A DNA stretch of 64,000 bases. Origin: Candidatus Binatia bacterium. GTDB taxonomy: Bacteria; Desulfobacterota; Binatia; Bin18. The notes beneath the pieces were generated by a model. That model ran no database searches. It was not told the origin of the DNA and saw only the letters and a program-made list of their open reading frames with translations. Position 1 is the stretch's first letter. Each line of letters opens with the position of its first letter. Positions 7,676-61,401 of this stretch are shown piece by piece. Where the stretch lies: NCBI GenBank assembly GCA_963666315.2, contig CAXXHG010000046.1, forward strand, positions 107,803 to 171,802, in the 5' to 3' direction. Made by a program: the position numbers and the translations under genes.

Positions 7676-9559
7676 ATGCTGAAGCAGCTGTCAAAAATAC
7701 AGGCCGTACTCCTTCCTCTCTCGTTCTTTCTATTTATAGGCACCGAAACCTGGGCGTCGCGTGATGGCGAAACGATCTACAATGGAGAGTGCGCGACCTG
7801 TCATACGAGTGGCGCGGAGCGGATGCCAACGTTGCAAACTTTGAAAGCTATGCCGACTGAATCCATTGTCCAATCCTTAGAATCCGGCACCATGCGGATC
7901 ATTGGCACCTTTAATCTCAACGGGCCGGAACGTGTTGCCGTTGCTGAGTACATCACTGGCAAAACGTACGATCCTAATTGGAATGCTCAGCAGCAAAATA
8001 CATGTACTGACCAAAGCTGGCCGCGCGCAAAAGCTGAAAACACTTTTATCGAACCACACTGGAACGGCTGGGGCAACGGCCTAGAGAATAGGCGTTTCCA
8101 GAATGCCGAGTCTGCCAAACTCAGCCTCAACGATGTGAAAAAGCTTGAACTGCAATGGGCGTTTGCTTTCCCTGGCGAAACCATTGCCGAATCGCAACCG
8201 ACCGTCGTGGGAGGGCGGATCTTCGTTGGCAGTCGAAGCGGCGTGGTGTATTCACTAGACGCCAAAACCGCGTGCATCCACTGGACCTATCAAGCCGACG
8301 GACCGGTGAAAAATTCAGTCCTTATTGGTGAAGCCACAGTTGGCAGTGCACAGCAGCTGGTCGCCTACTTTGGCGATCTTGGCGGCAACGCCTATGCAGT
8401 CAATGCACAAGACGGACGCCTGCTATGGCGCAAGCGAGTCGACGATCACCCAGCTGCGCGCATTATGGGTAGTTTTCAGTTGATCGGGAATCAGCTTATT
8501 GTCCCGGTGACTTCTCTTGAGTCCACCCTTGTTGCAAAGGTTGCTGCCACTTGCTGTACATTCCGTGGCAGCGTCGTGTCCTATGACGCGAGCAGTGGCG
8601 AACAACGCTGGAAGCGATACACCATCGACCAGGAACCCGCAAAGGTCGGGGAGAATGCCAACGGCGCGGACATCTATGGACCTGCTGGTGCCACGGTGTG
8701 GACGGCACCGACTTTTGATGCCAAGAAGCGCTTGCTGTATATCGGTACGGGCGAGAATTCCGTCAACCCGCCGACAACAACGAGTGACGCTGTGCTTGCC
8801 GTCAACGTTGACACCTCGGATGTCGTGTGGACCTACTAGGGTTTGAGCGGAGATGCCTGGAATATGTCCTGTGGGACGGAGGACAAAGTCAATTGTCCTC
8901 AAGACGCCGGCCCTGACTATGACATGGGCAGTTCGCCGAGCTTATCCACGCTCGCAAATGGGAAGCGCGTGCTGATTGCAACCCAAAAGTCGGGAGTAGT
9001 GCATGCCCTGGACCCCGATGACAATGGGAAACTGCTGTGGCAGCGACAAGTCGCCCAAGGCGGTATTCTGGGCGGGATCGAATGGGGGCCGGCGACTGAT
9101 GGTAAAAACATCTACGTAGCCATTGCCGACATTAGCTGGGACAGTGAAGACCTGCTCGACCCCGCTTTGGCCCTGAACCCCAATGCAGGCGGTGGCCTGG
9201 TAGCGCTCGACCTTGCAGACGGACACGTGGTGTGGGAAGCGCCTGCGATCACCTGTGGGGACCGCCCGCAGTGCAGCCCAGCCCAAACAGCGGCCGTGAC
9301 TGCGATCCCGGGTGTCGTGTTCGCCGGTTCGATCAGTGGTCATTTGCGTGCGTTCGACACGCGGGACGGTAGGGTGCTCTGGACATACGACACCGCGCGC
9401 ACGTACCAAACCGTGAATAAAGCCAAGGGCAAGGGCGGTGCGCTCGATGCCACAGGCCCAGTAGTGGTCGACGGCTGGATGTACGTTGTCTCCGGCTACA
9501 GCAAATGGGGCGGGCTACCAGGCAACGTCCTGCTTGCCTTTGCTCCGGCCAAGGAGTAG
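7676..9559 (+). pseudogene. PQQ-dependent quinohemoprotein dehydrogenase (polyvinyl-alcohol-dehydrogenase-like), interrupted by an in-frame TAG
   Basis: Signal peptide, c-type haem motif CATCH, then PQQ beta-propeller repeats; ORFs 7634..8839 and 8843..9559 share a frame and are separated only by TAG 8837-8839 (VVWTY*GLSGDAWN). Confidence 0.75.
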
Positions 9560-9770
9560 TCAGGACCTTTTCTCTTGAAGGAGAAGGTGTCAGCTCATCT
9601 AGCCTGAGTGCTTCAACGCGATGCGTTGACAGGGCCAATCAGGGTGCTATGGGCAGAAGTAAGAAGCAGTGGGAAAAACCGCTGCACGAGCAGCTGTAGA
9701 GCCGTGCTCTAATACGGTATAGGTCGGTCCGATTCATGTTGGGTCAACGTTCTCCCGACGGAGGAGTCCT

Positions 9771-10910
9771 ATGAAGTTCGGTGTCTTTCTCCCTAACGGC
9801 AGTAATGGCTATATTATGAGCAAGGCGATTACGCCGTATATGCCGACGTGGGAGCTGAACAGAGATATTACCCTTGAAGCGGAGCGCTTCGGGTTTGATT
9901 TCGTCTTATCCATGATAAAATTTCGCGGGTTCGGTGGCGAGACAGGGTATTGGGATGGGTGCCTGGAGTCGTTTTCGCTTACCTCAGCTTTAGCCACAGT
10001 AACGAAGCGGATCGGATTGATTCCGACTGCGCCGCTCCTAGCGCTTCATCCTGCCTATGTGGCTCGGACAATGGCAACGCTGGACGACATTAGCGGTGGT
10101 CGTGTCGCGCTCAATATTGTCACGGGATGGAATAAGCCCGAGTATGCCCAGATGGGTCTGTGGCGCGGTGATGAGTATTACGAGCAACGCTATGCGTATG
10201 CGCTCGACTACGTACACGTACTACGAACCCTCTGGAGAGACGGGACAATGACTCACCACAGTCCGTACTTTGATCTGGACGACTGCCAGTGTTTGCCCAC
10301 GCCCACGCACGAGATTCCCCTCGTTTCCGCGGGGCAGTCGAGTGCTGGCCAAGATTTTGTCTCTCGGATTGGTGGACACAGTTTTGCGATGGTTGCCCCC
10401 GACCGGCTGCATGCTATCGCCTCCGGCCTCAAGCAAGCGGGAGCCAAGTACGGTACGCGGGTGGGCATCTACGGATTGTTTCAAATTGTCGCAGCAGAAA
10501 CCGACGACCAAGCCTGGCAGACGGCCGCAGATATCGTGGCCGGAGGCGATATAGAAGCAATCAAGTCGCTGGTTTATTCCGCAAGTCTGGATACGGTCAA
10601 GGGTGGCACCTCGGGCCAGTTCCGGAATGAAGACGCTGGCGCTGATGAAGACTTGCTGGCCGGGGACATTGAGGCCGGGAATATGGTTTTTATGAATGTG
10701 CCCGTCCTGGTGGGCTCATATGAGACGATCGCCCGAAAGATCGACAATATTTCCAAGGATCAGAACATTGAGGGTATGTTATTCACCTGGCCGGACTGGG
10801 TCGCAGGGATTCAAACTTTTGGCGATCGTATATTACCGCTGCTCAACTGTCGGAAAGATTGGGATGGTGCAACCATGGGAGACCTACGGACACTCCGAGC
10901 CGACTTCTGA
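9771..10910 (+). CDS. LLM-class flavin-dependent monooxygenase, RutA-like
   Basis: MKFGVFLPNGSNGYIMS...PYMPTWELN...FDFVLSMIKFRGFGGETGYW...LESFSL...GGRVALNIVTGWNKPEYAQMGLW tracks E. coli RutA (as recalled) along its whole length. Confidence 0.7.
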   Translation: MKFGVFLPNGSNGYIMSKAITPYMPTWELNRDITLEAERFGFDFVLSMIKFRGFGGETGYWDGCLESFSLTSALATVTKRIGLIPTAPLLALHPAYVARTMATLDDISGGRVALNIVTGWNKPEYAQMGLWRGDEYYEQRYAYALDYVHVLRTLWRDGTMTHHSPYFDLDDCQCLPTPTHEIPLVSAGQSSAGQDFVSRIGGHSFAMVAPDRLHAIASGLKQAGAKYGTRVGIYGLFQIVAAETDDQAWQTAADIVAGGDIEAIKSLVYSASLDTVKGGTSGQFRNEDAGADEDLLAGDIEAGNMVFMNVPVLVGSYETIARKIDNISKDQNIEGMLFTWPDWVAGIQTFGDRILPLLNCRKDWDGATMGDLRTLRADF

Positions 10911-10950
10911 ATCATTCTCCTCTTATCCATCGATTCAAAAGGAAAAAACC

Positions 10951-12553
10951 ATGCAAAAATCGACGCGCGGAGCCCCAGGTATGACGGCGCAGGAAGATCA
11001 TACCGGCAATGGCCAAGCACCACATCAGTCCAAGGATACACAGCCAAGAGTCGTACGCGAGCCGCCAACGGGCAAGGAATTTCTGGAAGGGCTGCGCGAC
11101 GGGCGCGTCATCTATTTTGATGGTGAGTTAGTCAAAGATGTCACCACCCATCCGGCCTTTGCCACCAGCGCCCGTTCGTATGCCCGCATGTACGACACGC
11201 TGCATGACCCAGAGAAGTATGATGTGTTGACCTACGTAACTGAGCGAGGCGCCCGTTCACATAAGTTCTACAAGCTGCCACGTACTCACCAAGACCTCTT
11301 CGAGGCGCGGGATGCGATCGCCGAGTGGGCACGACTACAAGGCCGCGTTAGTCGGGACCCTGGCCTGTGACGTAGACTTCTACGGTGAGTACGCTCCGAA
11401 CGTACAGCGTTGGTATGAAAAGATCGCCGATGAGGTGATGTTCGTCAATCTGAGTCTGGTCAATCCAGCTGGCGACCGTTCAAAGCCACCGGCTGAGCAG
11501 CGCGATGTCTACATGCACGTCGTTAAAGAGCGAGACGATGGCATTGTTGTTCGTGTTGCTCGCATGGTCTCCACTGGGGCCGCCTTCAGCCATGTCGCCT
11601 ATATGAGCCAGTATATCCAGCCGGCGGGACTGGCTGAGAACGAAGAAGACTTCGCGATCGGCTTCTTCGTGCCCTTCAATGTCCCAGGCCTCACGTTCAT
11701 GGGCCGGTACTCCCACGAATATCTGGCTAAAAAGATCGGCTCTCCTTTTGACTACCCGCTCTCCAGCCGGTTTGACGAGTCTGATCTGAGTATCGTGCTC
11801 GACGACGTGTTTATCCCCTGGGAAGATGTGACTGTGTACCGCAACCCTGCGGTTGTGAACGGTCTCTTCCCGCGAGGCTTTGCCCGGCGGTTTGCCTTCC
11901 ACGCTGCTGCACGGACTGCAGTCAAGCTCGATTTTATCTGCGGCCTGTTCCTCCAGGCGACAGAGATGCAGCAGAAGACCGGCTTCCGCGAGGTACAAGC
12001 GGTGATCGGCGAGTTACTCGGCATGCGGCACAATATCTGGGCCCTCTCCACGGCAATGGCCGCCGATGCCGAGCCTGGGCCAGGGGGGTATTTGCTGCCA
12101 AAGACAGAGTACGCACTCCAGTGGCGCAATATTTACGGCGACACCTTTAGCCGGGCTCGGACCATGTTTCACAATCTGCTGTCCGGCAACTTGATCCAGA
12201 TTCCTTCTTCGGCTCAGGACTTCAAGAATCCAGACAGTCGACCATTACTTGACCGTTACTGGAAAGGCGCGACCGCCACGGCGGAGGAACGGGTGAAGCT
12301 GTTGCGCGTGATCTGGGATATGTTTTTGACAGAGTTCGCTGGCCGGACAGAGGCCCACGAACGCAACTTCGCCGGCGGCTACGAAGCGAATCGGGTCGAG
12401 ACATACCAAGCGGCAGAGCATTCGGGCCTGAATTCCAAGATGAAAGCCATGGTCGACGAATGCATGAGTCACTACGATCTCGACGGCTGGACGGATTCTA
12501 CGTGGGCAGACGTGCCCTGGTCGACCTCGGATTCAAAACCAGATTCAGAATAG
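10951..12553 (+). pseudogene. 4-hydroxyphenylacetate 3-monooxygenase oxygenase-component (HpaB) family gene, frameshifted
   Basis: N-terminal part in the frame of ORF 10696..11370 (..GRVIYFDGELVKDVTTHPAF..AIAEWARL) and the rest in ORF 11312..12553 (..DYKAALVGTLACDVDFYG..); the frame change/deletion lies near 11325-11345. Confidence 0.75.
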
Positions 12554-12589
12554 GCAGACTGTCTGGCCAGCAACTAAAGGAACCAGCAT

Positions 12590-13870
12590 TCAGTCAGCTA
12601 CGCCCTCGGCTGGCATACTTTCAGGTTCCCACACAATCGGCCGAATCGGAACGGTCAACAGAATGATCGAACAGACAACGCCGACACCTGCGGAAACAAA
12701 AAACGGCAGTAGCCAATTACCATCACCCGCGAGCATATAGCCCGCGCTCAGCGGTCCCAGAAATCCAGCGAATGTTCCCAAGGTGTTAATAAAGCCAAAT
12801 ATCGCACCAGCCAAATTCGGATTAAATTCCATCGCCACGGTCGAAAAGCCAGACAACGCAGTCGTAAAACAGGTGTAGAAGAGAACCAGGAAGACGACAC
12901 ATACTCCGGCCGATGGAGTCAGCGCAGCAGTTAATAAACAGGGGACTGCGCATGCAACGCCTATCCCCCCTAATCGCAGACGGGCAAACTCAGCGCTCCA
13001 GCCCTTCCGCAACAGATAATCTGCCAGCGCGCCACCGCCAACCAGTCCAATAAACCCGCCCCCATGCACAAAAACACCGAGCGTCCCCATGGCCATGAGT
13101 GTAAAACCTCGTGCTTCTACCAAATAGGTCGGAAACCAAAACAAAAACAGCCAACCAATATAGGCAAAACACATAAAACCAAGCGCAATCACCAGCAGCG
13201 ACCAGTTAGTAAAGAGAAGCCCAAGCGGTAGCGGCACCTTCGGCTTGGGACTGACATGCGCCGCAATATAACTCTGTTCCTCAGCCGTAACGCTGGCATG
13301 GGTTTCAGGAGAATCCGTCGCATACCAGAGCCAGATAAAAATCCACACGATTCCCAGGATGGCATTCACATAAAAAACCATATGCCACGAACTGTGCAGA
13401 ATAATCCAGGTCGTGAGCGGATAGGCCACCATCTGGCCGACTGTAATACCGGAGATGCTGATATTATGAGCCAGGCCAAACTCAGAGCGTGGAATCCAGC
13501 GGGCATTGATCGATGCCATAGCCGGGAATGTCATGGACTCGAACACGCCGACCAAAAAACGATACGCTAACAGCAGAGCAAACGCCCGCTCGGCAAACGG
13601 AGTCAAAAAGGTAAACACTGAAAAGCCCAAAAAAGCGAGGGCCAAAACCTTGCGGCCACTCCAGCGATCCGCCAGCACGCCGCCCGGCAGCTGTCCGCTG
13701 GCATAGCCAATCAAAAAGATTGAAAACACCCAGCCGAAGAGGTCTTTATCCCACCCTGTGGCCGCCATTATGACCGGAGCCGCAACAGAGATATTGACCC
13801 GATCGATGTAATTAATGACCGAGCTGCAAAACAGGAGCCCAATCATGTTGTAGCGAACCGGCCAAGCCAT
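12590..13870 (-). CDS. MFS transporter (anion:cation symporter-like)
   Basis: 12-TM-type hydrophobic profile; INYIDRVNISVAAP.. and G.LADRWSGRK motifs; start taken at MAWPVRY. Confidence 0.85.
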   Translation of the reverse strand: MAWPVRYNMIGLLFCSSVINYIDRVNISVAAPVIMAATGWDKDLFGWVFSIFLIGYASGQLPGGVLADRWSGRKVLALAFLGFSVFTFLTPFAERAFALLLAYRFLVGVFESMTFPAMASINARWIPRSEFGLAHNISISGITVGQMVAYPLTTWIILHSSWHMVFYVNAILGIVWIFIWLWYATDSPETHASVTAEEQSYIAAHVSPKPKVPLPLGLLFTNWSLLVIALGFMCFAYIGWLFLFWFPTYLVEARGFTLMAMGTLGVFVHGGGFIGLVGGGALADYLLRKGWSAEFARLRLGGIGVACAVPCLLTAALTPSAGVCVVFLVLFYTCFTTALSGFSTVAMEFNPNLAGAIFGFINTLGTFAGFLGPLSAGYMLAGDGNWLLPFFVSAGVGVVCSIILLTVPIRPIVWEPESMPAEGVAD

Positions 13871-13916
13871 TATTCTTGCCTGCTTCCTTGAATCCGAGCC
13901 GTGCTCCCACGTGCTC

Positions 13917-15011
13917 TTACCATGTCCCCCTGCGCTGAGAGCCGCCTGGGCCGCTATAGGAGGCAGTATAGCCCGGCTCACGCTGGAACAGATCTTTCGG
14001 AATCGTATCGACCGCTTGTTTCCAGGCTGCGACTAATCGATCCTCGGCTGCATAGTCAAACGGATCTTGCAGCATCGTTTCCTCTCGCCCCCCACGTTCC
14101 AGTGGATTGTCGCGCAGCCACACCGCGGCCTGTTTGATACCTTCAACTGGCAAGACAATATCCCGATAGCCCAGCTCTGATTTTATTTTGGTGAGATCAA
14201 ACACGCGGTGGGTCGTCCAGGGTTGTGTGATTAAGGGCCTGGCGCTTATGGCCAGCTCGTACGGCATCGAAACAATCTCCCACACGTGATCGAGAGCTTC
14301 AGCACACAGTTGCACCACTTGTTTCAGAGTTAAGACATGATCATCCCCACAGTTGTACACCTGTCCGGCTGCAACCTCGGGTTGATCCACGGCCAGCAGC
14401 AAGGCGTGAGCGACGTTAGCAGCCGCCCCAGAGTGGTTCAGCGATAAACCGTCATCGGGAATGATGATGGAAGAACGTTTGTCCACTATACGTCGGACAA
14501 TGGGCCATTCTCGCGGGACGACTTGATACGCTCCATAGATTTGAGGATAGCGAAAATGAGTGGCGCTGGGGTGGTGTTTGAATACCACTTCCTCCGAGCG
14601 ATACACCCGGAAGCCTTTGCCATCTTCGGCTTCGCTCGCAGTCTTGGTCGCATCTTCGGCAGTGGGTACAGGTAGTCCCGGAGGTTGAACCATGTCGGCA
14701 TTCATATAGCCTCGGTAAGCGGGCCCCCCACCAACCGAGATAAACCGCTCAGTCCGACCGACCATAATCTCGACCACCCGACGCAAGCGGCCGTACATGG
14801 CCATGGTCAGATCAAAATGAGAATCGCCAAGGGCATCAATCAATGCCTGGTCATCAAACGGGTTAGTATGAAGGTGGACCACAGATTCAGGAATCTCATC
14901 CACCTCGTGGTTGCCGGTATGCAAAATAGACACATCGAATCCGCGCTCGATCAATCCATTGACGATAAAGTGCCCCGTCGGTCCAGTCCCACCGATGACT
15001 AAGGCCTGCAT
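13917..15011 (-). CDS. NAD-dependent epimerase/dehydratase family (extended SDR) protein
   Basis: N-terminal Rossmann motif VIGGTGPTGHFIV. Confidence 0.8.
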   Translation of the reverse strand: MQALVIGGTGPTGHFIVNGLIERGFDVSILHTGNHEVDEIPESVVHLHTNPFDDQALIDALGDSHFDLTMAMYGRLRRVVEIMVGRTERFISVGGGPAYRGYMNADMVQPPGLPVPTAEDATKTASEAEDGKGFRVYRSEEVVFKHHPSATHFRYPQIYGAYQVVPREWPIVRRIVDKRSSIIIPDDGLSLNHSGAAANVAHALLLAVDQPEVAAGQVYNCGDDHVLTLKQVVQLCAEALDHVWEIVSMPYELAISARPLITQPWTTHRVFDLTKIKSELGYRDIVLPVEGIKQAAVWLRDNPLERGGREETMLQDPFDYAAEDRLVAAWKQAVDTIPKDLFQREPGYTASYSGPGGSQRRGTW

Positions 15012-15110
15012 TGTTGTTTCACTCCAGTATTCTCTTCATTTATTCCCTAGCCTCGGCATCACCTGGCGATGATCGCTAGGAGGGGCCGATCTCGATTATG
15101 TGACGCATTA

Positions 15111-15141
15111 CCCGGATTCCACTCCGTTCCATCCAGGCTAC
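15111..15141 (-). repeat. GTAG-type REP hairpin (GTAGCCTGGATGGAACGGAGTGGAATCCGGG family)
   Basis: Near-identical copies at 46764-46795 and 48402-48433. Confidence 0.8.
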
Positions 15142-15169
15142 GCTATTTGACTTGCTCTCTCCGTTTTCT

Positions 15170-16990
15170 CTACCTGGGAATAATCGGCAGTAGGACATAC
15201 GATGCGCGGTCATCCTGATGGAACACGGTCTGCTGGGCTGACACCCACTGTGTTCCCTCGCCAAACGGCTCGCCCGTATTCAGGTTGCGATCAAACTCGG
15301 GGAAATGGCTGGAGCTGATTTCTAGCCGGATGCGATGGCCCGGCAAGAAGACGTTACTCGTCGCCCATAGATCAATCATAAACTGATACGGCTTGCCCAC
15401 TTCCAGCAATTCAGGCGTGCTCGCCGAGTCCCGATAGCGGGCCCGGATAATGCCATTAAGCAGATTCTGCGCGTAACCGTCTGGATGGACATCAATCAGT
15501 TTGGCCGTGAAGTCAGTATCAACGGCTGAAGAGGATGCCCACAACGTAACCGTTACTGGTCCGGTAATTTCCAACGACTGGGTGAGCGGTTCGGAGGTAT
15601 AGACGAGGACGTCATTGCGTTCTTCGACCGGGCGTTGGTCCTGGACACCCATATCAACCGTAAGATTATTGCCGCCCAGCGACGGAGCAGGATTGTCGGG
15701 GTCATAGACATAGGTGTCTATCTGTTCCTGGCTGGGCGGGACGGTTGAGAGCGTCCCATTGCCGTTCAGTGTGTTCGCCTCGCCGCCACTGTGTAGGAAG
15801 TAACGAACCTGGCGCATATTGGGCGGTGGCCAATTGGACAGATGCTGCCAGCGGTTCTCACCAAGAGTGAAGACGCTGACCGGCGGCTCGTCCATCATGC
15901 CGTTGTCCACATCTTTGAGCCAATAGTCAAACCAGCGCAGCAAGGTTTCATTCAGGTCGATCAAGGCATTCGGACCAAAATCAATATCGCCTGCGCCACG
16001 TGAACTCGGCGTGGTATACGGCAGCAAGTGACCCCATGGTCCGATGATCAGCCGTTGGCCGCCCCTCGCCGCTTCAGACTGGCTTTTGGCGGTGATGCTC
16101 TGATAGGCGGCTGGCCCACCCTCAGCAAACGTATCGTACCATGAGGTAACGTGCAGCATGGGCGTACTGATCGTCTCAGCAAAGTGGTTCACATTGGCCC
16201 GGTACCAGTACTCGCCGTCGTCGGCATGCGCGATATGATCCGCCATATACGGGGCGGTTTCTTTGAGCAGCTCGCCCCAGTCTTTGATTGGCAAGTGCCG
16301 ATACCATTCATCAGTCAGCGGGGTGAACGCGTTTAAGCCCCAGCGGGTCGTCCGTACTCCGGCTAACTCACCGCCTTCAACATACTCCTTCATTTTTTCC
16401 ATCAGATCTCTGCGCCCTTGGCGTTTGAGCGTGTCCAGACCCTTGAATATGGCATACGGCACCATCCAGCCCCACTTCGACACCCCGCCGGTCTGGTAGA
16501 TCCAACTGGCATGGTAGTCAGCCGAGGCCGAGACTGGAGCCATGCACTGCAGGGACGGCGGCATAGGGTCATTACACGCAATCAGATATTGCGTCAGCCC
16601 CAAATAAGATTGGCCCGTCATCCCTACCCGTCCATTTGACCACGGCAACCGGGCTGCCCATTCGACGGCATCGTAGCCGTCGGGCGCTTCTTGAAAGATC
16701 GTGTCGTATTCGCCTTCAGACTCAAAACGGCCGCGACAGTCCTGGGTAATACAGACATAGCCATACTGGGCATACGAGGCATTCAGTCCATTGGGATCGG
16801 CGGAGCCCTTTTTGCCGTACGGGGTGCGGCTTAGCAGGACGGGAAAACGCTCGGCCGAGTCCGGCCGGACCACATCAGCATACAGCGTGAGCCCATCTCG
16901 TGTCTTCATGGGGACATTTTCTTCGGTAGTGACTTTGTATTGTTTGCGCGCTGGGACGATCATACCTGGCTCCTCCTCAGTATGCTTCAT
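15170..16990 (-). CDS. CocE/NonD family hydrolase (S15 X-Pro dipeptidyl-peptidase-like)
   Basis: ~600 aa; LSRTPYGK near the N-terminus; nucleophile elbow GMTGQSYLG; beta-sandwich-sized C-terminal domain. Confidence 0.8.
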   Translation of the reverse strand: MKHTEEEPGMIVPARKQYKVTTEENVPMKTRDGLTLYADVVRPDSAERFPVLLSRTPYGKKGSADPNGLNASYAQYGYVCITQDCRGRFESEGEYDTIFQEAPDGYDAVEWAARLPWSNGRVGMTGQSYLGLTQYLIACNDPMPPSLQCMAPVSASADYHASWIYQTGGVSKWGWMVPYAIFKGLDTLKRQGRRDLMEKMKEYVEGGELAGVRTTRWGLNAFTPLTDEWYRHLPIKDWGELLKETAPYMADHIAHADDGEYWYRANVNHFAETISTPMLHVTSWYDTFAEGGPAAYQSITAKSQSEAARGGQRLIIGPWGHLLPYTTPSSRGAGDIDFGPNALIDLNETLLRWFDYWLKDVDNGMMDEPPVSVFTLGENRWQHLSNWPPPNMRQVRYFLHSGGEANTLNGNGTLSTVPPSQEQIDTYVYDPDNPAPSLGGNNLTVDMGVQDQRPVEERNDVLVYTSEPLTQSLEITGPVTVTLWASSSAVDTDFTAKLIDVHPDGYAQNLLNGIIRARYRDSASTPELLEVGKPYQFMIDLWATSNVFLPGHRIRLEISSSHFPEFDRNLNTGEPFGEGTQWVSAQQTVFHQDDRASYVLLPIIPR

Positions 16991-17076
16991 AGCACGTATG
17001 CGTCATACCACCTCAACAATGCGCGCGATACAATTGATACTGCTTCTTTTTGATGCGTATCCATGTAACCAATCCC

Positions 17077-17106
17077 GTAGGTCGGGTTAGCGTAGCGTAA
17101 CCCGAC
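17077..17106 (+). repeat. GTAG-type REP hairpin (GTAGGTCGGGTTAGCG-N-CGTAACCCGAC family)
   Basis: Palindromic; copies in the opposite orientation at 22952-22981 and 54911-54940, degenerate copy at 57918-57946. Confidence 0.85.
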
Positions 17107-17192
17107 ACATCAGACTCGGTGCGCAGGCCGCACCCTACGGGAAGAGTTGTACTGTGACAGTCGAAGAGATAAATAATCCCAGAGGCTAACCT

Positions 17193-20100
17193 ATGACGTT
17201 CGATGAGGTATTGGATCAGGTCCGCGACTTATTGCAGCAACGCGGGCGGGTGACCTATCGGTCACTCAAGCTGCGCTTTCAGCTGGACGATGAAATGCTC
17301 GCAGGTGTGAGCGAAGAGCTCATCGAAGCCGAGCGGGCGGCACGGGACGATAATGGGAAAGTCCTCGTCTGGACCGGCGGCGATGAAGCAGCCGCTACGC
17401 CAAGTGATACTCCACCCCTTACACCAACTTCCCCGGTGAAATCCTTGAAGCTGGAAGCTGAGCGGCGACAGCTGACGGTCATGTTCTGTGACTTGGTCAG
17501 CTCGACAGCCCTTTCGGAGCAACTCGACCCCGAAGAGCTACGGGAGATAGTGCGCGCCTACCAACAAACCAGTGCAAAAGTCATTGAACGCTACGAGGGT
17601 TATATCGCCCAATATCTGGGCGACGGCATACTTGTGTACTTCGGTTACCCGACTGCTCATGAAGATGATGCCGCGGGAGCCGCACGGGCCGGGTTGGAAA
17701 TTGTTGCTGCATTACAAAAGCGAAACGTAGGGGCGACCGGCCGGTCGCCCCTACAAGTACGTATCGGTATCCATACGGGTCCAGTTGTTGTTGGTGCGAT
17801 GGGTGGAGGCGACAGGCAAGAACAGCTGGCCATAGGTGAAACACCGAACATTGCCGCCCGGGTCCAAGGGCAAGCCGAGCCGGATACGGTCGTCATCAGT
17901 GCAACCACATATCAGCTGATACATGGATCGTTCGCCTGTGAAGACCAGGGACCCCAGACACTAAAAGGAATCAGTACTCCACTGTCGCTCTATCGGGTTA
18001 CGGAAGAGCGGGCCGTCCAAAGCCGCTTTGAGGCGACGGTTCAAAAGGGTGTAGAGGGCTTATCAGCATTGGTCGGCCGCGAGGAGGAGATCCAGTTCCT
18101 ACACGAGCACTGGCAGCGTTCCTGCACAGGGGAAGGTCAGGCCGTGCTGGTAAGTGGGGAGCCCGGCATTGGCAAATCACGGCTCATGCAAGAACTCAAG
18201 GAGAGAGTTGCCAAGGATGCAGGCAGATGTATTGAGTTTCACTGTTCTCCCTATCACACCAACAGCGCCCTGCATCCAGTCATTGAGCATCTGCAACAAC
18301 GACTGCAGTTTGAGCGGGATGACACGGATGAGACCAAGCTGGAAAAACTCTAACACGCGTTCGCCTCTAATCGCTTTGCGAAAACTGATCCCCTGTCTCT
18401 TTCCCTGCTCGCAGCGCTGTTATCACTGCCGCAACCTGAGGACTCTCCTCCACTGGCCTATAGTCCTCAAAAGCAGAAAGAGAAGACTTACGAGACGCTT
18501 GGGCGCTGGCTCGTGGAGGAAGCCGAGGACACTGCCGTATGCTGCCTGTGGGAAGACCTGCACTGGGCCGACCCGTCAACGCTTGAACTGCTGGCCCTCT
18601 ACCTGGACCAAGTTCCGACTGCGCGCATGTTGGCCATGCTCGTCTTCCGTCCGGAATTTACACCCCCGTGGACGATCCGGTCGCACATGACCCAATTCAC
18701 ACTGAGCCGCTTGGGACAGCCGCACGTGGTAGCGATAATTGAACGCGTGACGGGGGGTAAAGCACTGCCAAACGAGGTCGTGCAGCAAATCGCGGCTAAG
18801 ACCGATGGGGTGCCGCTGTTTGTGGAGGAGTTGACCAAGACAGTGCTGGAATCTGACATCGTCCGGGCCGTCAACGGTCACTATGAACTAACAGGTCCGG
18901 TGTCCGCTTTGAGTATTCCCGTCACCTTACAAGACTCGCTCATGGCCCGGTTGGATAGGCTGCCACTGGCCAAAGGGGTGGCGCAATTGGGGGCAACGAT
19001 AGGCCGAGAGTTTAACTATGAACTCCTCCACGCTACAGAGTTACCTGCCGAGGAGGAGCTGCAACAAGGTCTCGAACAATTAGTCCAGGCCGAGTTGGTT
19101 TATCAGCGCGGCTACCTGCCCGATGCTCAGTACACGTTTAAGCATGCGCTGATTCAGGACACAGCGTATCAGTCTTTATTGAAACGCACCCGCCAGCAGT
19201 ACCACCGTCAGATTGCCGAAGTCATGGAGCAGCAGTTTGCCGAGCGGGTAAGCGCGCAGCCGGAGCTGCTAGCGCACCATTACACCGAGGCCCAGCTGAT
19301 TGAGCAGGCGCTGCCGTATTGGCTACAAGCCGGGCAGCAGGCCACGCAGCGGTTTGCCAACACCGAAGCTATCCAGCACTTGGACAAAGGTGTCGCGCTC
19401 CTCCAGACTCTGCCCGACAGCCCTGAGCGGGCGCAGCACGAGCTGCCGTTTCATATGGCGTTACAGGCGTCGCTCTTTACCACGACCGGATGGGCCTCTC
19501 CCGAGCTGGGCCGGAGCATGGAACGGGCGTACACCCTGTCTCAGCAGGTTGGCGAGCCCCGGCAGATTTTTGATGTGTTGATGGGGCTGTGCCCATTTCA
19601 TATGGGCGGTCAATCTGAGCTGCGGACAAGCCTAGAAGTGGCCGAACAGATGCTGCGCCTGGCCCAGGGGCAGGACGACGCCACCCTCATGCAGAGAGCC
19701 CATTTGATGGTGGCGAATACGCTATTCTATATGGGTAACCTCTCCACGACGCAGATACACCTTGCGCAGGGGCTGGCCCTTGGCGACGCCGTGCAGGACG
19801 GTTTTATCAAGCAGCTCGGGGCGGACGCGCGGATGGTTCTGCTATCCTACGTCGCGCTGACCCTCTGGGTACAGGGGTTTCCCGAGCAGGCGTTGCAGCG
19901 GAGTACAGAAGCTATAACCCAGGCGCAGGAACTGGGGCACCCCTTCAACTCGGTGATGGGGCTCGAGCTGGCTACGCTGCTCCATGTATTACGTCGCGAG
20001 GCGCAATCGGCCCAAGAGCGAGCTGAGGCGGCTATGACTCTTGCGACGGAGCACGGGTTCCCAATGTACGTGGCCTGGAGCTCTATCCACCACGGCTGGG

Positions 20101-20669
20101 CCGTCGGAGAGCAGGGAGCCCCTGAGGAAGGGAGCGCACTGTTCAAGGAGGCACTCTCCCTCTACCAGGCTCCAGGGATAAAGGGATGGATACCGTTTTA
20201 TCTGGGACTCTTGGCGCAATTAGACGGGCAGGGGGGGCGCGCCGAGGAGGGCTTGTCCGTGTTGGCCGAGGCTCGCGAGCTCAGCACGCAACGAGGGGAC
20301 TGCTGGAGTGAGGCAGAGTTGTATCGGCTGACCGGCGAGTTGACATTACAAAAGTTCAAAGCCCGTCCTGAGCAAAGTCGAAGGATTCAAAGTTCAGAGC
20401 CTGTCCTGAGCGGAGTCGAAGGGATCAATGGCGAAGAAGAAGCTGAAGGCCATTTTCTCAAGGCCATTGAAATTGCCCAAAAGCAAGAAGCCAAATCCTG
20501 GGAACTGCGCGCCGCCACGAGCCTTGCTCATCTGTGGCAGCAACAAGGCAAGAAGCAAGAAGCCCTCGATTTACTCGCTCCATTCTACAATTGGTTTACC
20601 GAAGGCTTTGACACGCCGGACTTGAAAGACGCCAAAGCGTTGTTGGATGAACTAATGGAGAGGCAGTAA
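17193..20669 (+). pseudogene. class III adenylate/guanylate cyclase - AAA/STAND ATPase - TPR protein with one in-frame TAA
   Basis: Cyclase core ERRQLTVMFCDLVSST..YLGDGILVYFGYP; P-loop GEPGIGKS; EDLHWAD and a TPR-like C-terminal region; ORFs 17193..18353 and 18513..20669 share a frame, and the stretch between them is open apart from TAA 18351-18353. Confidence 0.8.
20355..20423 (+). repeat. two tandem units of a short dispersed repeat inserted in frame in the cyclase/STAND gene
   Basis: TTCAAAG-CCCGTCCTGAGC-AAA-GTCGAAGGA / TTCAAAGTTCAG-AGCCTGTCCTGAGC-GGA-GTCGAAGGG; absent from the paralogue at the equivalent place. Confidence 0.7.
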
Positions 20670-22897: not shown

Positions 22898-22920
22898 TCC
22901 GTCCCTTTATGAGTATGACT

Positions 22921-22981
22921 GTAGGGGCGAGGTTACCTCGCCCAATAAGGTGTCGGGTTACGCTCCGCTAACCCGACCTAC
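22921..22981. repeat. two adjacent REP hairpins (GTAGGGGCGAGGTTACCTCGCCC, then the GTCGGGTTACGC..ACCCGACCTAC type)
   Basis: Read directly; lies between convergent genes. Confidence 0.8.
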
Positions 22982-23003
22982 GGCTCGCGCATAGATATCA
23001 ACG

Positions 23004-34414: not shown

Positions 34415-34479
34415 TAGAGAATCCAGAGAAGCGGGGTTACACTCCGATGACTGGCTTCAGCCCGTTTCGTTAGGCGCTC

Positions 34480-37314: not shown

Positions 37315-37569
37315 TTAGGTTTCCTCCCCTATTTTCTGGGGCATACGTCGTGGCAGCCCCCCACAACGTTGGAGGGCTAAGGCGTCAAGCCGTTCTTGGA
37401 ATGTTCTTTTTTCAGCCGGGGTCCGGCAGGGCAAGGCACCCAGCTCTTGGCGTTCTTCAACCCTCAATGCTTGCCATTCTTTTAAGTGCAGTTTGATGCC
37501 AGCCTGATCAAGCTTGTCGCGGACAGAGCGAGGGATCCAGTCGAGATCAGCTTTCTCCATAGCCGTCAC
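37315..37569 (-). CDS. nitrate-reductase-associated protein family (TIGR02664-like) small protein
   Basis: IPRSVRDKLDQAGIKLHLKEWQALRVEERQEL..LPCRTPAE follows the pattern I recall for this family (IP..VR.KLD..GIKL.L..W......ER..L...PC.T..E). Confidence 0.5.
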   Translation of the reverse strand: MTAMEKADLDWIPRSVRDKLDQAGIKLHLKEWQALRVEERQELGALPCRTPAEKRTFQERLDALALQRCGGLPRRMPQKIGEET

Positions 37570-37717
37570 CTTTCAGAATACTGTCAGCATACTGATATTT
37601 TTGGCCCTACCCGCTTTCTTGAAACAGCGCAAGCCAGTCTCTCTACCCATCCGTTTTTTTACCCTTGCGTCTACCCCTCTTGGCGATACAGAAAAGGGTA
37701 TGGTAAGGCTTCAGTCC

Positions 37718-54004: not shown

Positions 54005-54007
54005 AAT

Positions 54008-54800
54008 TTACCTACAGCCCGGCTTCTTGCCTGCGAGACACGCCTTCTCATACAGCGGGAGAGCCGTAGACATGCGTTTACGCAGGTCCTCAATACGCGT
54101 CTGGGGCGAAGGATGAGTAGAGAGAAACTCCGGCGGTCGAGGGCCGCCGGCTTCATCCATGCGCTTCCATAATTGAATACTCTGACGCGGATTAAAGCCT
54201 GCGCGCGCCATGAGATCGATCCAGATAATGTCGGCTTCACTTTCCTGGGTCCGACCAAAAGGTAAAGCCACGCCGAACTGGGCGGCAACCCAAGCACGGC
54301 CAAGGCGCGCTCTTGGGTTGCCGCTGACGCACCACTAAAGATCTTGGCCATCTGCTGCACTCCCGCCCGGGTGGCATACGCGGTCGAGACACGCTCATTA
54401 GAATGGTTGACAAGCACATGCCCCAGTACGGTTGCCAGCTGATGCTGATTCTGGGCGACCTTGAGTAAGCCGGTATGCACGCCGATTTTTCCTCCTGGCA
54501 GGGCAAACGCATTCACCGCGTCATCTTGAAAGACGACGACCTCCCACGAACCTGGTCCACCTTTGCCCGGCAGTGCCGCCGTAATCCCATGGGCGACACG
54601 GCGCACATAGCGGTTTACTTTCCCGCTTTTCGCTGCAGGAGTTTATTTTTTGAGTTTTGCAAACGCGGCCACGCCCATGGCGTTCACTTCCGACGCCGGG
54701 GAGAGGCGCAACTGACTTCGGCCCAAAGGCGACGTAGCACAGGCAGACGAAAAAGCCAGTACGATCAGAGTGACACTTACATACTTACATATTTCAGCAT
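54008..54800 (-). pseudogene. M48-family metallopeptidase lipoprotein, heavily decayed
   Basis: 8-bp tandem duplication (ACTTACAT x2, 54775-54790) breaks the signal peptide MLKYVSVTLIVLAFSSAC; in-frame TAA 54643-54645; LGHVLVNH where the family has GHExGHV (HExxH missing, ~54415-54423); frameshift ~54285-54295 before ..LPFGRTQESEADIIWIDLMARAGFNP..FLSTHPS. Confidence 0.7.
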
Positions 54801-54910
54801 TGTTTTCCTTCTCCACTCAAATGGTGTCCTGTAGATATAGCGGAAAAGAACACGCGTGAGGAATTCCCCCCTACACACTGAACAACATGTCAGCCAGTCA
54901 GCCATGTGGT

Positions 54911-57045: not shown

Positions 57046-57780
57046 ATGCGTGCGCTTGATATTGCGACTTCGGCCCTGTCTACTGTTGCCCGCTTGGGCT
57101 ATGCCGAGCGTATTGGGGCACTCGGGCCACGCCCCAAGCAAGCGCTTGAGCTGTACGACTTCGAAGGCTGACCGTTTTGTCGCAAGGTCCGTGAGGCCTG
57201 CACCGTTTTGGACTTAGACGTCAAGATCTATCCCTGCCCCAAGAGCGGCCCGCGCTATCGTGTAGCCATCAAGCAGCGCGGTGGGAAATACCAATTCCCA
57301 TATCTTATTGATCCCAATACCGGAGCCGAAATGTACGAATCCGACGCCATTAATGACTATCTGTTTGAGCACTATGGCAGCGGCACGGTTCCCGTCATGC
57401 TGTCCTCGGGTCTGCTGACCACGCTGGCCGTTTCTTTAGCTTCACTGGCCCGTCCCGGACGCGGGTCATTCTACCGCCGCGCTACACCGCCGCAAGAATG
57501 GCTTGAGCTGTACAGTTATGAAGGTTCACCGTTTTGTCGCCTGGTGCGTGAGACCTTGTCCGAGCTTGAAATTCCCTATTTGCTCCATAATGTTGCCCAG
57601 GGCAGTCCGCGCCGCGCAGCATTCGTCGCCCTCTCCGGCAAAATGCAGGTGCCGTATTTGATTGATCCGAATACACACACGGCCATGTTCGAGTCGGCCG
57701 ATATTGTGGCGTATCTGAAACGGACCTATGCACTAGGGCGAGCGGGCTCCTCTTTCCTCGCCCCTCAGGGGAGAGGATGA
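57046..57780 (+). CDS. two-domain glutaredoxin-like / GST-N-terminal-domain protein, candidate selenoprotein (UPFC; TGA 57169-57171 read as Sec)
   Basis: ATG 57046 is in frame with ORF 57208..57780; the junction reads LELYDFEG-TGA-PFCRKVREA..VKIYPCPK..FPYLIDPNTG..MYES. The family consensus as recalled is FE.CPFCR.VRE, and the second domain of the same protein has YEGSPFCRLVRE. Confidence 0.6.
57182..57201 (+). promoter_or_regulatory. candidate bacterial SECIS hairpin
   Basis: GCA-A-GGUC / CGUGA loop / GGCC-UGC: 7 pairs (one G-U) with a bulged A, starting 10 nt after the TGA; GU in the apical loop. Confidence 0.45.
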
Positions 57781-57794: not shown

Positions 57795-57917
57795 AGCATT
57801 GTAGACAGTCACCTCTGACGATAATTTCACTTCTCCCCGCATTCCAACCATCCCTCATCCGGGCTACATTTTTCTTGGAGAGAAATCCCGGGGAAATCCG
57901 AAGGAGGAGCTTGAGAT

Positions 57918-57988: not shown

Positions 57989-57998
57989 GAGATCTCTT

Positions 57999-58445
57999 AT
58001 GAAAGTCTTTGTCACAGGCAGTACAGGTTTAGTTGGCAACAATTTAGTCCGCGCACTCGAAGCCCAAGGTTTTGACGTGGTTGGCCTGGTGCGTTCGGAG
58101 GAAAAGGGCAAACGCCTACTGGGCGATACCAACGCGACGCTGGTCAAAGGCGATATGCTGGACGTGCCAGGCTGTGCCGACGCGCTGGACGGTTGCGAAG
58201 CCGTGTTTCACACTGCGGCCTATTTCCGCGAATACTTCCAGCTCGGCGATCATGCCCAGGCTTTGGAAGACGTCAACATCACAGGTAGCTAAACCTAATG
58301 ACCCAGGCTGACAAACGCGGCGTGCGCCGGTTTGTGCATGTCAGCTCGAGCGGTACGATCGGCATGAAACCCGACGGCTCGCCAGGCGATGAGGACACGC
58401 CGACGCAGGCCTCACAATTGGAGAATCTCTACTTCAAGAGCAAAG
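57999..58445 (+). pseudogene. NAD-dependent epimerase/dehydratase (dihydroflavonol-reductase-like SDR) fragment
   Basis: MKVFVTGSTGLVGNNLV..; frameshift near 58285-58295, then ..RRFVHVSSSGTIG..ENLYFKSK, after which homology ends. Confidence 0.65.
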
Positions 58446-60617
58446 TTTGTCGACGAAGCCCTGCGCTTCTTTGGCGATGAAGACCCAACTGTTGGTTCAC
58501 CCTGGGATAAAGGCGAAAGGCTAGCACAGCTGGTACGCGAGTCTCGAACCTTACTCGTCCTCGATGGCCTTGAACCACTCCAACACCTGCCAACATCCGG
58601 CGATGCAGGTCGGATCAAAGATCCTGCCCTCCAGGCATTGGTCCGCGAATTGGCAGCATCGAATCCAGGCATGTGCGTTATCAGCACGCGCCAGACTGTG
58701 GCGGACATCTCCGGTACGCTTACCATCGATCTGGAGCACCTCTCGGACAAAGCTGGCGCAGCACTCCTCAAGGCGCTGGGTGTCAAAGGTTTGCAGGAAG
58801 AATTGAAACACGCTTCTCAAGACGTGAATGGTCACGGGCTCGCGCTGACATTATTAGGCACTTATCTGAGTAAGGCGTATGACGGTGATGTACGTCGGAT
58901 TGGTGAAGTTGAACTACTCAAAGCGGATGATCGTCGAGGCGCGCACGCGCGTAAACTTATGGAGAAATACGAGCACTGGCTCGGCAATGGCTCAGAACTG
59001 TCGATCTTACGGCTCTTGGGACTGTTTGACCGCCCAGCAGAGGCTGGCTCGATTCAGGCCTTACGAACAGTACCGGCTATCTCTGGCCTAACCGATTCTT
59101 TAGTAAATTTAAGCCAAGAGGATTGGTCCTATGCCGTTTCAAATCTTCGAGATTGCGGTCTCGTCTCTCCAACAAGTTCTGGAGATTCTGATTCACAATC
59201 GTTAGACGCCCACCCCCTGGTCCGTGAGCATTTTGCTGAGCAGCTTACCGAACGCTTTCCAGACGCAGCCAAGGAAGCACACCGCCGCCTGTACGAGCAT
59301 CTCAAACAGTCCGCACCTGAACTCCCCGACACCCTCCAAGCCATGATGCCGTTGTACCATGCCGTGGCGCATGGGTGTAAGGCGGAGTTGTGGCAGGAGG
59401 CGTTGGACGACGTGTACCTTGAACGAATAGTTCGGCGTCAGGAGTGTTTCAGCATCAAAAAGCTCGGAGCATTCGGTACCGATTTGTCCGCAGTCTCTTG
59501 TTTCTTCGAAGAACTGTGGCAACGTCCGACTACGAACATAACTGAGGCTGACCGAGCATGAATACTGAACCAAGCAGGATTCCACTTACGCGCTCTTGGA
59601 CGACTGCAAGAAGCCACTGAACCTCTTAGGGCCAGTTTTGAAGCGACAATAGCGCAGCAGGAATGGCACCGAGGCGCCATATCCGCCTCCAATCTCAGCG
59701 AACTGCATCTGACGCTAGGCAACGTATCTGCCTCTGTGCGTGCCGCCGAACAGAATGTGGAGCTGGCCGACCGTAGCGGGGATGCCGCTGAGAGAACGGA
59801 AGATCGGGTGATAGTGGCTTATGCTCTGCACCAGGCTGCTCGCAACGCCGAAACCCTGGCAGCCTTTCGAAAGGCAGAGGTCTTGCAAAAAGAGAGGCAG
59901 CCAGACTACCCTCTGCTCTAGTCGGTGTGGGGCTTCTATTACTGCGATTTGCTGCTGGATGAGTCCTCAGCCCTCAGCTCTCAGAACTGAATGTAAAACC
60001 CAAAGACGTTGACACCACCCAATCCGCAATCGAGACTTGTCGCGAAGTACGAGAACGTGCTCGGGGTACGTTGAAGACTGCCGAAGATAGCGGATTATCT
60101 CTCCTCACCTTCGCCCTTGACCACCTAACGCTGGGACGGACACATCTTTTGGAGGCCCTACTTCAATCCGCAAGCCCAAATTCGCAATGGAGCAGGCAGA
60201 ACAACAGCTAAACGAGAGCGTCTCCCTCCTACGTCAGGCTGGGCAGCAAAATCACTTACCTCTTGGCCTGTTGGTCCGCGCGGCACTCCGTCGGGTGCAA
60301 GAACGGTTTACGACGGAGAATGTGATCTTGCCGAAGCCGAGTCCATCGCCAAGCGTGGCTCGATGCTGATCTTCCAGATTGATGCGGCGATTGAGCGATG
60401 TCGATTGCATTTGGCTATGGGGAAGCATGGCGCTGCGCGGGAAAGTCTTGAGCTGGCGAAGGAGTTGGTCAAGAAAACTGAGATGCCGTATGAGCCGCAA
60501 ATTCCCGATTGGGACGAGTGGGAGCCGCCGAGTTATGTGGGTGTTTTCCAGGAGGGCGAGATTGTTGGCTATCATCGGCGGAATCCTGAGATTGCGGTGT
60601 TGGAGGGGAAGGCGTAG
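58446..60617 (+). pseudogene. NB-ARC/STAND NTPase - TPR gene remnant lacking its P-loop, with multiple stops and frameshifts
   Basis: RTLLVLDGLE (Walker B), CVISTRQ, GHGLALTLLG (GLPL-like); in-frame TGA 59559-59561 and TAG 59919-59921, then at least 3 frame changes up to the conserved tail ..GSMLIFQIDAAIERCRLHLAMG..(60617). Confidence 0.6.
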
Positions 60618-60717
60618 GCATTCCGAGCCCCACCCGGTGGGTGCCCACGACGGGCTCCGACTGGCGATGAAACTTCATGTCCGGGCGGTAGGGGATGACG
60701 GACCACCGTTCGCTTCC

Positions 60718-60836
60718 CCCTTCGACTAGCTCAGGACAGGCTTCGACTGGCTGCTCATGAACGCAACCGTCGTCCGCAACGGAAAGGAAACCATTTTGAT
60801 TCCCCTCAACCCGTCGAAATGCTCAGGACAGGCTTA
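60718..60836 (-). repeat. two copies of the ..CCTGTCCTGAGC.. short repeat in non-coding DNA
   Basis: 60718-60747 and 60810-60836 contain GCTCAGGACAGGCTT, the reverse complement of the core seen inside the CDS at 20355-20423. Confidence 0.7.
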
Positions 60837-60870
60837 GTGCTCTCCCCAAAGGGACGAGGAAATTAAAGGC

Positions 60871-61401
60871 ATGAACACACAGCCTCACATCCAAACCGAA
60901 CGCCTTACCATACGTCCTCCAATCCTGAACGACCTCGACGACCTCCATCGTCTGTGGACTGATCCGGATGTCCGACGCTACTTGTGGGACGATCAGATCA
61001 TTCCAAAAGAACGCACAACACAAGAGCTGCATAAAACGATCGACTGCTTTGCTACACGCAGCTTTGGACTATGGGCCGTGTGTTTGAAAGGCCACACACA
61101 GCTTATTGGGATCTGTAGCTTTTTGCCTGAAGACAATCCTTGCGAAGCCGAACGCCTGTACGCCATTGCCCCGGCCTATTGGAAGCAAGGTTTGATCACC
61201 GAATCAGCCAAGGCAGTATTGTAATATGGATTTGAAAGCCTGGGCTTCTAGCGAATTATTGCCAGTGCGGATGTGCCCAATGTCGGCTCTATTCGGGTGA
61301 TGGAAAAGATTGGAATGTGTTTTGAGAAACAAGAGCCGGTCGATGGATTGGAACTGGTTTTTATTCGATTGGGCGGGAGGGCTCATGCTACAAAGCCCTA
61401 A
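60871..61401 (+). pseudogene. GNAT N-acetyltransferase with two in-frame stops
   Basis: TERLTIRPPILNDLDDLHRLWTDPDV..; TAA 61222-61224 (AKAVL*YGFE) and TAG 61249-61251 (LGF*RIIASADVPNVGSIRVMEKIGM); all in one frame to TAA 61399-61401. Confidence 0.7.

Follow-up and report, generated by a model that had tools for sequence, protein, structure and literature searches.

A dense cluster of probable recent pseudogenes among accessory genes of an uncultured marine Candidatus Binatia population

Introduction

Pseudogene-rich genomes in early reductive evolution are known from Mycobacterium leprae, Sodalis glossinidius, and 'Nostoc azollae', and among free-living marine bacteria Trichodesmium erythraeum shows a low coding density with many pseudogenes, a state that extends genome-wide and is conserved in natural populations. 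The present analysis concerns a 64-kb stretch of DNA, hereafter the window, from contig CAXXHG010000046.1 of the Candidatus Binatia bacterium assembly GCA_963666315.2, in which ∼20 of ∼63 loci are disrupted and together carry at least 40 lesions, as tallied by comparison with orthologues. These loci are very likely recent pseudogenes in the accessory genes of an uncultured marine Candidatus Binatia population, made by ordinary spontaneous mutation and still decaying. A first-pass annotation of the window had counted at least 15 disrupted loci, which is fewer loci, with fewer lesions, than are reported here. Pseudogenes go unmentioned in the main paper on Binatota genomics, and literature searches found nothing, whether they combined Binatota with the topic of pseudogenes, combined it with the Canada Basin, or were made on the sample accessions.

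The DNA read comprised the window and ∼20 kb of flanks. TrpE(G) matches Candidatus Binatia metagenome-assembled genomes (MAGs) at 96 per cent (L007) and 93 per cent (L001) amino-acid identity, and complete Binatia chromosomes stand at ∼82 per cent. Contigs that are 99.95–99.97 per cent identical to the window occur in SRR9039930 and in JGI Ga0310122 (99.97 per cent for the latter), and Ga0310122 is Canada Basin CB6 bottom water, an attribution tied through the title of L007 and the sample name 'CB6_Bottom'. The water of this series came from 10 to 100 m above the bottom (bottom water ∼3800 m), and seawater was passed sequentially through 3 µm and then 0.22 µm filters (bioRxiv 10.1101/2022.08.13.503825). 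Proteins of the window are also present in a public protein collection, where they lie on a 177,782-bp contig that has the variants of the window itself and on ctg44287 (221,674 bp) of ENA ERZ28763718. The loci L081, L085, L168, and L169 all belong to ctg44287 and L086 is ERZ28669063, which makes two assemblies with 'ctg' names besides the source assembly; L082 is a MEGAHIT (k141) contig from a third project, 99.07 per cent identical to the window over 7440–24216. Relatives in which intact states were read are 80–99 per cent identical.

Results

The window was split into stop-to-stop segments, each of which was scanned against Pfam, and the breaks were then aligned to orthologues by tblastn or at the DNA level. 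All 11 in-frame stop codons of the first-pass annotation are present where it placed them and on the same strands, and the genes that contain them are indeed cut there, since profile coverage is interrupted in the host genes (a GNAT match spans positions 1–107 of 138). Relative to full-length orthologues, frames are interrupted in the genes of a PQQ-dependent dehydrogenase, an HpaB-family monooxygenase, an acyl-CoA dehydrogenase (ACAD), a RAYT-like transposase, three GNATs, an M48 metallopeptidase, an SDR/NmrA-type reductase, a TIR-STAND protein, and an adenylate cyclase-STAND protein. For all of these except the last, orthologues were found intact in relatives, those of both GNAT genes upstream of trpE and of the third (GNAT3) included, and where full length was recorded it is 533–540 aa for HpaB, 396 aa for ACAD, 173 aa for RAYT, 265 aa for M48, 334 aa for SDR, and 988 aa for TIR-STAND. 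The lesions are specific to the window lineage; M48 by itself has four of them and the TIR-STAND remnant seven. The SelO, TrpE(G), LspA, MFS transporter, and luciferase-like monooxygenase (LLM) genes of the window are full-length by profile coverage, in agreement with their earlier description as intact.

Where frameshifts had been called in DJ-1, methyltransferase, VapC, and RAYT genes, the joined frames match the DJ-1, PEMT, PIN, and Y1_Tnp profiles. Single-nucleotide indels are borne out in the hydrolase (∼31025), M48 (∼54289), and SDR (∼58288) genes, whereas the break in HpaB is a ∼32-nt deletion and that in RAYT a complex change. The lesions that are new here comprise extra indels in the first of the GNAT genes (GNAT1), the GNAT2 remnant, a 30-nt deletion in a second STAND gene (STAND2), the EthD remnant, the 5′ truncation of a sigma factor, loss of a GFA gene, the truncation of the SDR gene at its junction with the TIR-STAND remnant, and three frameshifts with a 12-nt deletion inside that remnant.

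From the left, homology with L082 begins at 7440; to the left of that point the window and L082 are non-homologous, and L082 has EthD and hydantoinase genes there. An EthD remnant lies on the reverse strand (7430–7648), a 73-aa stop-to-stop stretch that reads FTEFFRRRPGMTSAAFLEHWQRRH, at the place of a 212-aa EthD gene in L082. The PQQ-dependent dehydrogenase gene (7634–9559, forward strand) is interrupted by TAG at 8837–8839, with Pfam coverage of positions 1–284 on one side of the break and 497–577 on the other; L082 and L169 have CAG (Gln) and an intact gene of 627 aa. This stop is a C>T change private to the source assembly, being a variant of very recent origin or else an error of the consensus. 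The HpaB-family gene (10951–12553, forward strand) has orthologues in a cluster of at least 90 per cent identity, loses its frame at ∼11337, and lacks profile positions 1–100 of HpaB_N. Absence of the residues SWGTLSRGP in the protein alignment points to a ∼32-nt deletion between GACT repeats, and the lesion is common to L082 and L169. Substitutions relative to L082 are densely clustered at 7440–7800 and 23238–23400, with 99 per cent identity elsewhere, and these clusters may be recombination tracts or rearrangement edges.

The adenylate cyclase-AAA_16-TPR STAND gene (17193–20669, forward strand; full-length homologues of 1100–1140 aa) ends prematurely at TAA 18351–18353, so that its Guanylate_cyc and AAA_16 match stops at AAA_16 position 81, and assemblies from ENA, JGI, Logan, and NCBI repeat the shortened product of 386 aa. 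Its paralogue STAND2 (20656–22894, forward strand), compared with the profile, with L082, and with the cyclase-STAND gene, is truncated at the 5′ end, beginning at AAA_16 profile position 103, and has a 30-nt deletion at 22258 that is flanked by GCGCAGG repeats relative to L082. The frame switches at 22705, where the junction reads GAAGGCCATTGAG and the paralogue has EGHFLKAIEIAQ; these two sequences, taken without a base-by-base alignment, are consistent with the 14-nt deletion between GGCCATT repeats that had been proposed at 22705/22706. The 640-aa product of STAND2 is also found in a JGI assembly.

Between 30 and 50 kb, an epoxide-hydrolase-like alpha/beta hydrolase gene (30135–31087, forward strand) carries TAG 30333, where the nearest homologues have Ser, and a 1-nt deletion at ∼31025. 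Its abhydrolase match starts at profile position 48, and the frame change reads GGCCAT-GGGTCCAG; L081 is identical here. A scan of metagenome contigs with the intact abhydrolase gave one close short locus, L087 (87 per cent, 1.2 kb), and no syntenic relative. The N-terminal remnant of a DJ-1/PfpI gene (33176–33418, forward strand) covers profile positions 2–76 of 165, with a repeat element ∼270 nt downstream. The ACAD gene (41401–42591, forward strand), which also has intact orthologues in a cluster of at least 90 per cent identity, contains TAG 41560–41562 at a site of Ser or Thr in orthologues; its ACAD_N match starts at profile position 40, and its identity to the aligned orthologue P0099 is 87 per cent. 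An ACAD orthologue in another Binatia genome (P0112, 342 aa, on a 5.17-Mb contig) is likewise called from the same MYD(S/G)GW, which hints at an independent disruption or at an alternative start in the same place. The spacer between an LLM gene and the ACAD pseudogene holds imperfect, A/T-rich tandem repeats of 18 and 27 nt (41308–41379).

On the reverse strand, the intact RAYT-like Y1 transposase P0162 aligns in two frames to the copy at 42627–43146, which breaks at ∼43022 through a complex change of net +1. Next to it, GNAT1 (43303–43779, reverse strand) combines TGA 43516 with two deletions, of 124 and 3 nt, and an insertion of 1 nt, and GNAT2 (43920–44174, reverse strand) is a remnant from which ∼310 nt are missing at the 5′ end, along with another 2 nt; in L001, L007, and L002 the former is intact with TGG and the latter is unbroken over 189–201 codons. 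A sigma-70-family factor is represented by a C-terminal remnant (46881–47323, forward strand) with an 11-bp tandem duplication at 47100–47121 and a weak SnoaL_2 match in Pfam, and L001 has the longer gene. The PEMT/ICMT-type methyltransferase gene (47626–48094, forward strand) is frameshifted at ∼47850, and its joined frames cover PF04191 positions 4–104 of 105. The VapC gene (49149–49640, forward strand) has TGA 49311 and a frameshift at ∼49520, its joined frames covering positions 1–111 of 120 of the PIN domain, and a PDB search with VapC gave no match usable to polarise 49311. REP/MITE-like direct repeats of ∼130 nt, at 48643–48770 and 49717–49848, bracket the VapBC cassette.

M48 (54011–54810, reverse strand), judged against P0201 (90 per cent identity) and the DNA of L167, has an 8-bp duplication, a GAA codon changed to TAA at 54643, a 1-nt deletion at ∼54289, and a 12-nt deletion between GCAT repeats by which H-E-V-A of HEVAH is gone, as the first-pass annotation had concluded from a collapse that removes HExxH; the three lesions other than the stop are not in L167 or P0201, and Pfam coverage is 3–106 of 186. 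A GFA gene has been lost by deletion at 57909. The SDR/NmrA-type reductase, intact in L167, survives as a remnant (57999–58446, forward strand) with a 1-nt deletion at ∼58288 and a 3′ truncation at 58446, where homology stops, and Pfam coverage is confined to the first ∼80 positions. At this same junction the shortened SDR gene is fused to a STAND gene without its first 253 residues (58446–60617, forward strand). What had been called an NB-ARC/TPR gene is in fact this 5′-truncated TIR-AAA_16-TPR STAND remnant, the TIR domain and P-loop being among the missing residues. Aligned to P0321 (80 per cent identity) and P0322, it shows TGA 59559 and TAG 59919 at Trp and Tyr, three frameshifts (∼59975, ∼60185, and ∼60310), and a 12-nt deletion. 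The TIR-AAA_16-TPR STAND architecture is defence-like and of ∼950–990 aa in homologues, and the remnant sits between SDR and GNAT genes that are adjacent in L167. GNAT3 (60871–61401, forward strand) contains TAA 61222 and TAG 61249, for which the DNA of L167 (179-aa gene) has CAA and GAG and P0114 (177 aa) has Gln and Glu.

Related Binatia also have pseudogenes of their own, fewer than the window. L167 (10001–10796 and 7629–8491) has an M48 gene split into 203 + 50 aa and a split 321-aa hypothetical gene, a sigma factor in L001 (13737–14717) has an in-frame stop, and in relatives the epoxide-hydrolase orthologues (P0090, P0095, and P0096) are either cut short or joined to a proton pyrophosphatase. 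Coverage by long open reading frames (ORFs) differs between the window and its relatives in the expected direction but does not discriminate. The Nitr_red_assoc ORF at 37318–37572 was considered as a gene fragment and rejected; its ∼85 aa are conserved in all relatives. Rfam and tRNA scans of the whole window gave no match.

Errors of assembly or consensus, such as long-read sequencing can introduce, might be supposed to explain the stops and indels. The source and near-identical assemblies bear 'ctg' names, which suggest a long-read assembler, and stop 8837 is found in the source assembly alone. Every other lesion, however, is repeated in two other 'ctg' assemblies: the ctg44287 loci differ from the window by 6–8 substitutions per 13–21 kb, L086 is similarly close, and the two assemblies (99.94–99.98 per cent identical) together carry all the lesions in the interval 9.6–63.5 kb. 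The lesions of the 7.4–24 kb region other than 8837 are found again in Illumina assemblies (MEGAHIT, JGI, and Logan), and L082 in particular has the same lesion in HpaB, the same TAA at 18351 in the cyclase gene, and the same change of frame at 22705. Many of the lesions are also of kinds foreign to sequencing error, among them substitutions that create stops, duplications of 8 and 11 bp, and deletions that span 12, 30, 124, and ∼310 nt, and none of the 1-nt indels lies in a long homopolymer. Because they recur in overlapping assemblies, the lesions (8837 excepted) are not assembly artefacts, and an origin in sequencing or consensus error is very improbable.

Recoding of the stops, whether by selenocysteine, readthrough, or an altered code, would leave the genes functional, and selenocysteine is made plausible by two further in-frame TGA codons, each at the first Cys of a CxxC motif. 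One is TGA 36844–36846 of a DsbA-like gene (FQ-TGA-PYC), whose split products of 201 and 139 aa are kept in relatives; the other is TGA 57169–57171 of a glutaredoxin/GST_N-like gene (EG-TGA-PFC), for which the 177-aa calls in relatives start just after the stop. Both probably encode selenocysteine and are not lesions. Of the 11 stops under discussion, none is, like these two, a TGA at a conserved redox Cys that is kept in relatives. They span all three stop codons, replace Gln, Trp, Glu, Tyr, and Ser and never Cys, are not in orthologues, and co-occur with frameshifts, truncations, and loss of HExxH in M48, and it is exceedingly unlikely that they are decoded in functional genes.

Eight of the 11 stops could be polarised, 41560, 18351, and 49311 being left out. 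Four are transitions, namely 8837 (CAG>TAG) and 61222 (CAA>TAA) from DNA, 43516 (TGG>TGA) from the DNA of three relatives, and 59559 (Trp>TGA) from two homologues. Three are firm transversions, 61249 (GAG>TAG) and 54643 (GAA>TAA) from DNA, the latter with Glu in all M48 homologues aligned, and 59919 (Tyr>TAG) from two homologues; a fourth, 30333 (Ser>TAG), is a probable transversion from the three closest homologues. Orthologues at 41560 have ACC, ACA, AGC, or GCC (Ser/Thr/Ala) in every case, and 18351 is ambiguous, with Glu in 10 of 14 homologues and Gln in the homologue most similar to the query segment.

The first-pass annotation had regarded the stops as compatible with C>T and G>A transitions and had remarked that each is one step from a codon for Gln, Trp, or Arg. 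By construction the remark applies to every TAA, TAG, or TGA, and compatibility with transitions carries no information before polarisation, since a sense codon cannot become a stop through A>G or T>C. Once polarised, 8837, 43516, 61222, and 59559 do fit the description, whereas 54643, 61249, 59919, and probably 30333 do not, and for at least three stops the ancestral codon was something other than the CAG, CAA, TGG, or CGA on which a transition bias had been made to depend. The transition share expected among nonsense changes was calculated from the codon usage of 30 intact window genes with kappa ∼3.3, itself taken from 75:45 transitions to transversions between the window and L082. The expectation is ∼0.55 (range 0.43–0.67), and since the 4 of 7–8 observed matches it, there is no special transition signature; the spectrum is what ordinary mutation predicts.

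A transition-biased process, for instance one that comes from deamination of cytosine, from a deaminase toxin, or from uracil or mismatch repair having been lost, would account for the four C>T or G>A stops, and all eight polarised changes begin at G or C if the Ser codon is TCG and the Tyr codon TAC. That shift toward A/T, however, is forced by the AT-rich stop codons themselves, and it comes with three to four transversions and with a transition share equal to the null. Differences from L082 show no marked asymmetry either, with G/C in the window and A/T in L082 at 56 sites and the reverse at 45. A process of this kind is thus a highly unlikely maker of the stops, and ordinary spontaneous mutation remains the preferred account of them.

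Part of the indels agree with the slipped-strand origin that had been put forward. The tandem duplications at 54775–54790 (8 bp) and 47100–47121 (11 bp) are perfect, as described, and are not in L167 and L001, and deletions of 12, ∼14, 30, and ∼32 nt are bounded by direct repeats of 4–7 nt (GCAT, GGCCATT, GCGCAGG, and GACT).

Two lines of evidence bear on the age of the lesions. Measured against relatives at ∼90 per cent identity, dN/dS is 0.06 for ACAD and 0.20–0.26 for M48, GNAT3, and the N-terminus of SDR, with intact genes at 0.06–0.21; the low values in pseudogenes suggest that most of their divergence arose under purifying selection and that inactivation is recent, very recent in the case of ACAD, although the signal of relaxed constraint is weak. 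Relative to L082, pseudogenes have 34 substitutions in 7.19 kb (4.73 per kb) and intact neighbours have 9 in 5.38 kb (1.67 per kb), a 2.8-fold difference (p = 0.002), and three of the four intragenic indels between the window and L082 fall in pseudogenes. The extra indels of L082 itself lie only inside HpaB and the STAND gene, and in L085 and L086 further insertions, of one A and of 10 nt, lie within pseudogenes. Since strain-private lesions and denser substitutions are concentrated in pseudogenes, and stop 8837 is private to the source assembly, the decay is ongoing.

Repeats and remnants of mobile elements are scattered along the window. A 732-bp dispersed repeat (33692–34423) with an IS30-like HTH_38 fragment (34087–34380, reverse strand), which is the element downstream of the DJ-1 remnant, has a second copy that is 100 per cent identical, at 2388–3119 of L168, ∼6 kb past the window's right end, and a 99-aa ORF that overlaps the left edge of the repeat occurs on several other long contigs. 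A REP/MITE-like family is present at 22946, 54905, and 57912, close behind STAND2 and M48 in the spacers between genes and also at the junction of GFA loss, and further short REP/MITE-like repeats are paired at 46745 and 48383 and at 48563 and 57747. The first 2500 nt hold a serine-recombinase fragment (1219–1545), a Sel1-repeat gene with 108-nt repeats, and a perfect 9-nt tandem repeat, CACATCATG, in 6.2 copies (1007–1062) that is length-polymorphic, L170 having two units more. Beyond the left end (L169 10627–20627) lie ∼10 kb of short hypothetical genes, and L170 has an integrase fragment at 7627–7896; the left flank may be an integrated mobile element.

Discussion

The cluster of broken genes in the window is an unusually dense local case of well-known gene decay, and its cause would appear to be relaxed selection plus drift and not a special mutagenic process. 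Under such a mechanism, selection would have slackened on catabolic paralogues, GNATs, STAND or defence-like NTPases, a toxin, a peptidase, and mobile-element genes, which are the classes affected. Nonsense substitutions would then have accumulated through both transitions and transversions, replication slippage would have given duplications and deletions between short direct repeats along with indels of 1–2 nt, and deletions of hundreds of bases would have shortened or fused genes; a dispersed repeat with an insertion-sequence fragment adjoins one remnant. Once dead, a gene would evolve neutrally and gather more hits, while housekeeping-type neighbours would stay under purifying selection.

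Several points weigh against this account. The lesions between 24 and 64 kb are replicated only in 'ctg'-named assemblies, which may share a systematic error where 1-nt indels are concerned, and the Illumina contigs L167 and L001 show the intact state only, in more distant relatives. The dN/dS of pseudogenes exceeds that of intact genes only modestly. DNA alone says nothing on the cause of relaxed selection, and the right-hand 10 kb are mostly intact, which may indicate decay of a local accessory region instead of genome-wide erosion.

There is some reason to take that local version seriously, in which decay is limited to a dispensable accessory region beside a mobile element and is not a property of the genome. 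The recombinase and integrase fragments and the many hypothetical genes of the left flank, the REP/MITE-like repeats with IS30 and RAYT remnants across the window, and a synteny with relatives that is only patchy would all suit it. The broken genes are nevertheless interleaved over 54 kb with the conserved, intact selO, trpE(G), and lspA, the same neighbourhoods are intact in relatives, and pseudogenes are scattered in related lineages too. A purely regional decay is accordingly a real possibility, although the odds are somewhat against it.

The broader proposition, that a planktonic deep-ocean Binatia lineage is in early and active genome erosion with about one-third of its loci recently inactivated, is rather doubtful. 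The origin of a near-identical contig in Canada Basin bottom water speaks, weakly, against host restriction. Were the proposition true, it would be of note that genome erosion is rare for a free-living pelagic bacterium and that none was found for this phylum in literature searches, and the erosion might then go back to a recent change of niche, to an effective population of small size, or to the loss of a repair function. Interest in the window rises only if the decay is genome-wide, and a similar density across the genome would make this population a natural example of a free-living deep-sea bacterium that is still losing genes. Strain snapshots at 99 and 99.96 per cent identity, with different extra lesions, could serve to measure the rates at which pseudogenes are born and decay in the wild. 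As a practical matter, short 'genes' will be overcounted when this MAG is annotated automatically, and metabolic reconstructions should exclude these copies of the PQQ-dependent dehydrogenase, HpaB, ACAD, epoxide hydrolase, M48, and SDR genes.

Recent pseudogene formation by ordinary mutation, the reading preferred here, finds its counterparts in several known systems. The perfect 8- and 11-bp tandem duplications and the repeat-bounded deletions resemble replication-slippage mutations. Phase-variation tracts are a different matter, in that the lesions of the window are one-off and inactivating and involve no long homopolymer or microsatellite. The likeness to M. leprae, Sodalis, and 'Nostoc azollae' lies in independent lesions of genes that are intact in close relatives, several of them hit more than once, in the mixture of lesion types, in remnants of mobile elements, and in the sparing of core genes. 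Unlike in those genomes, no large expansion of insertion sequences is seen in the window, the near-identical population is planktonic and from the deep Arctic with no sign of host restriction, and only 64 kb have been read. Trichodesmium offers the remaining comparison: Binatia belong to a different phylum and the state described here is known from 64 kb, whereas that of Trichodesmium is genome-wide, yet in both a pelagic marine bacterium bears a heavy load of gene remnants and repeats.

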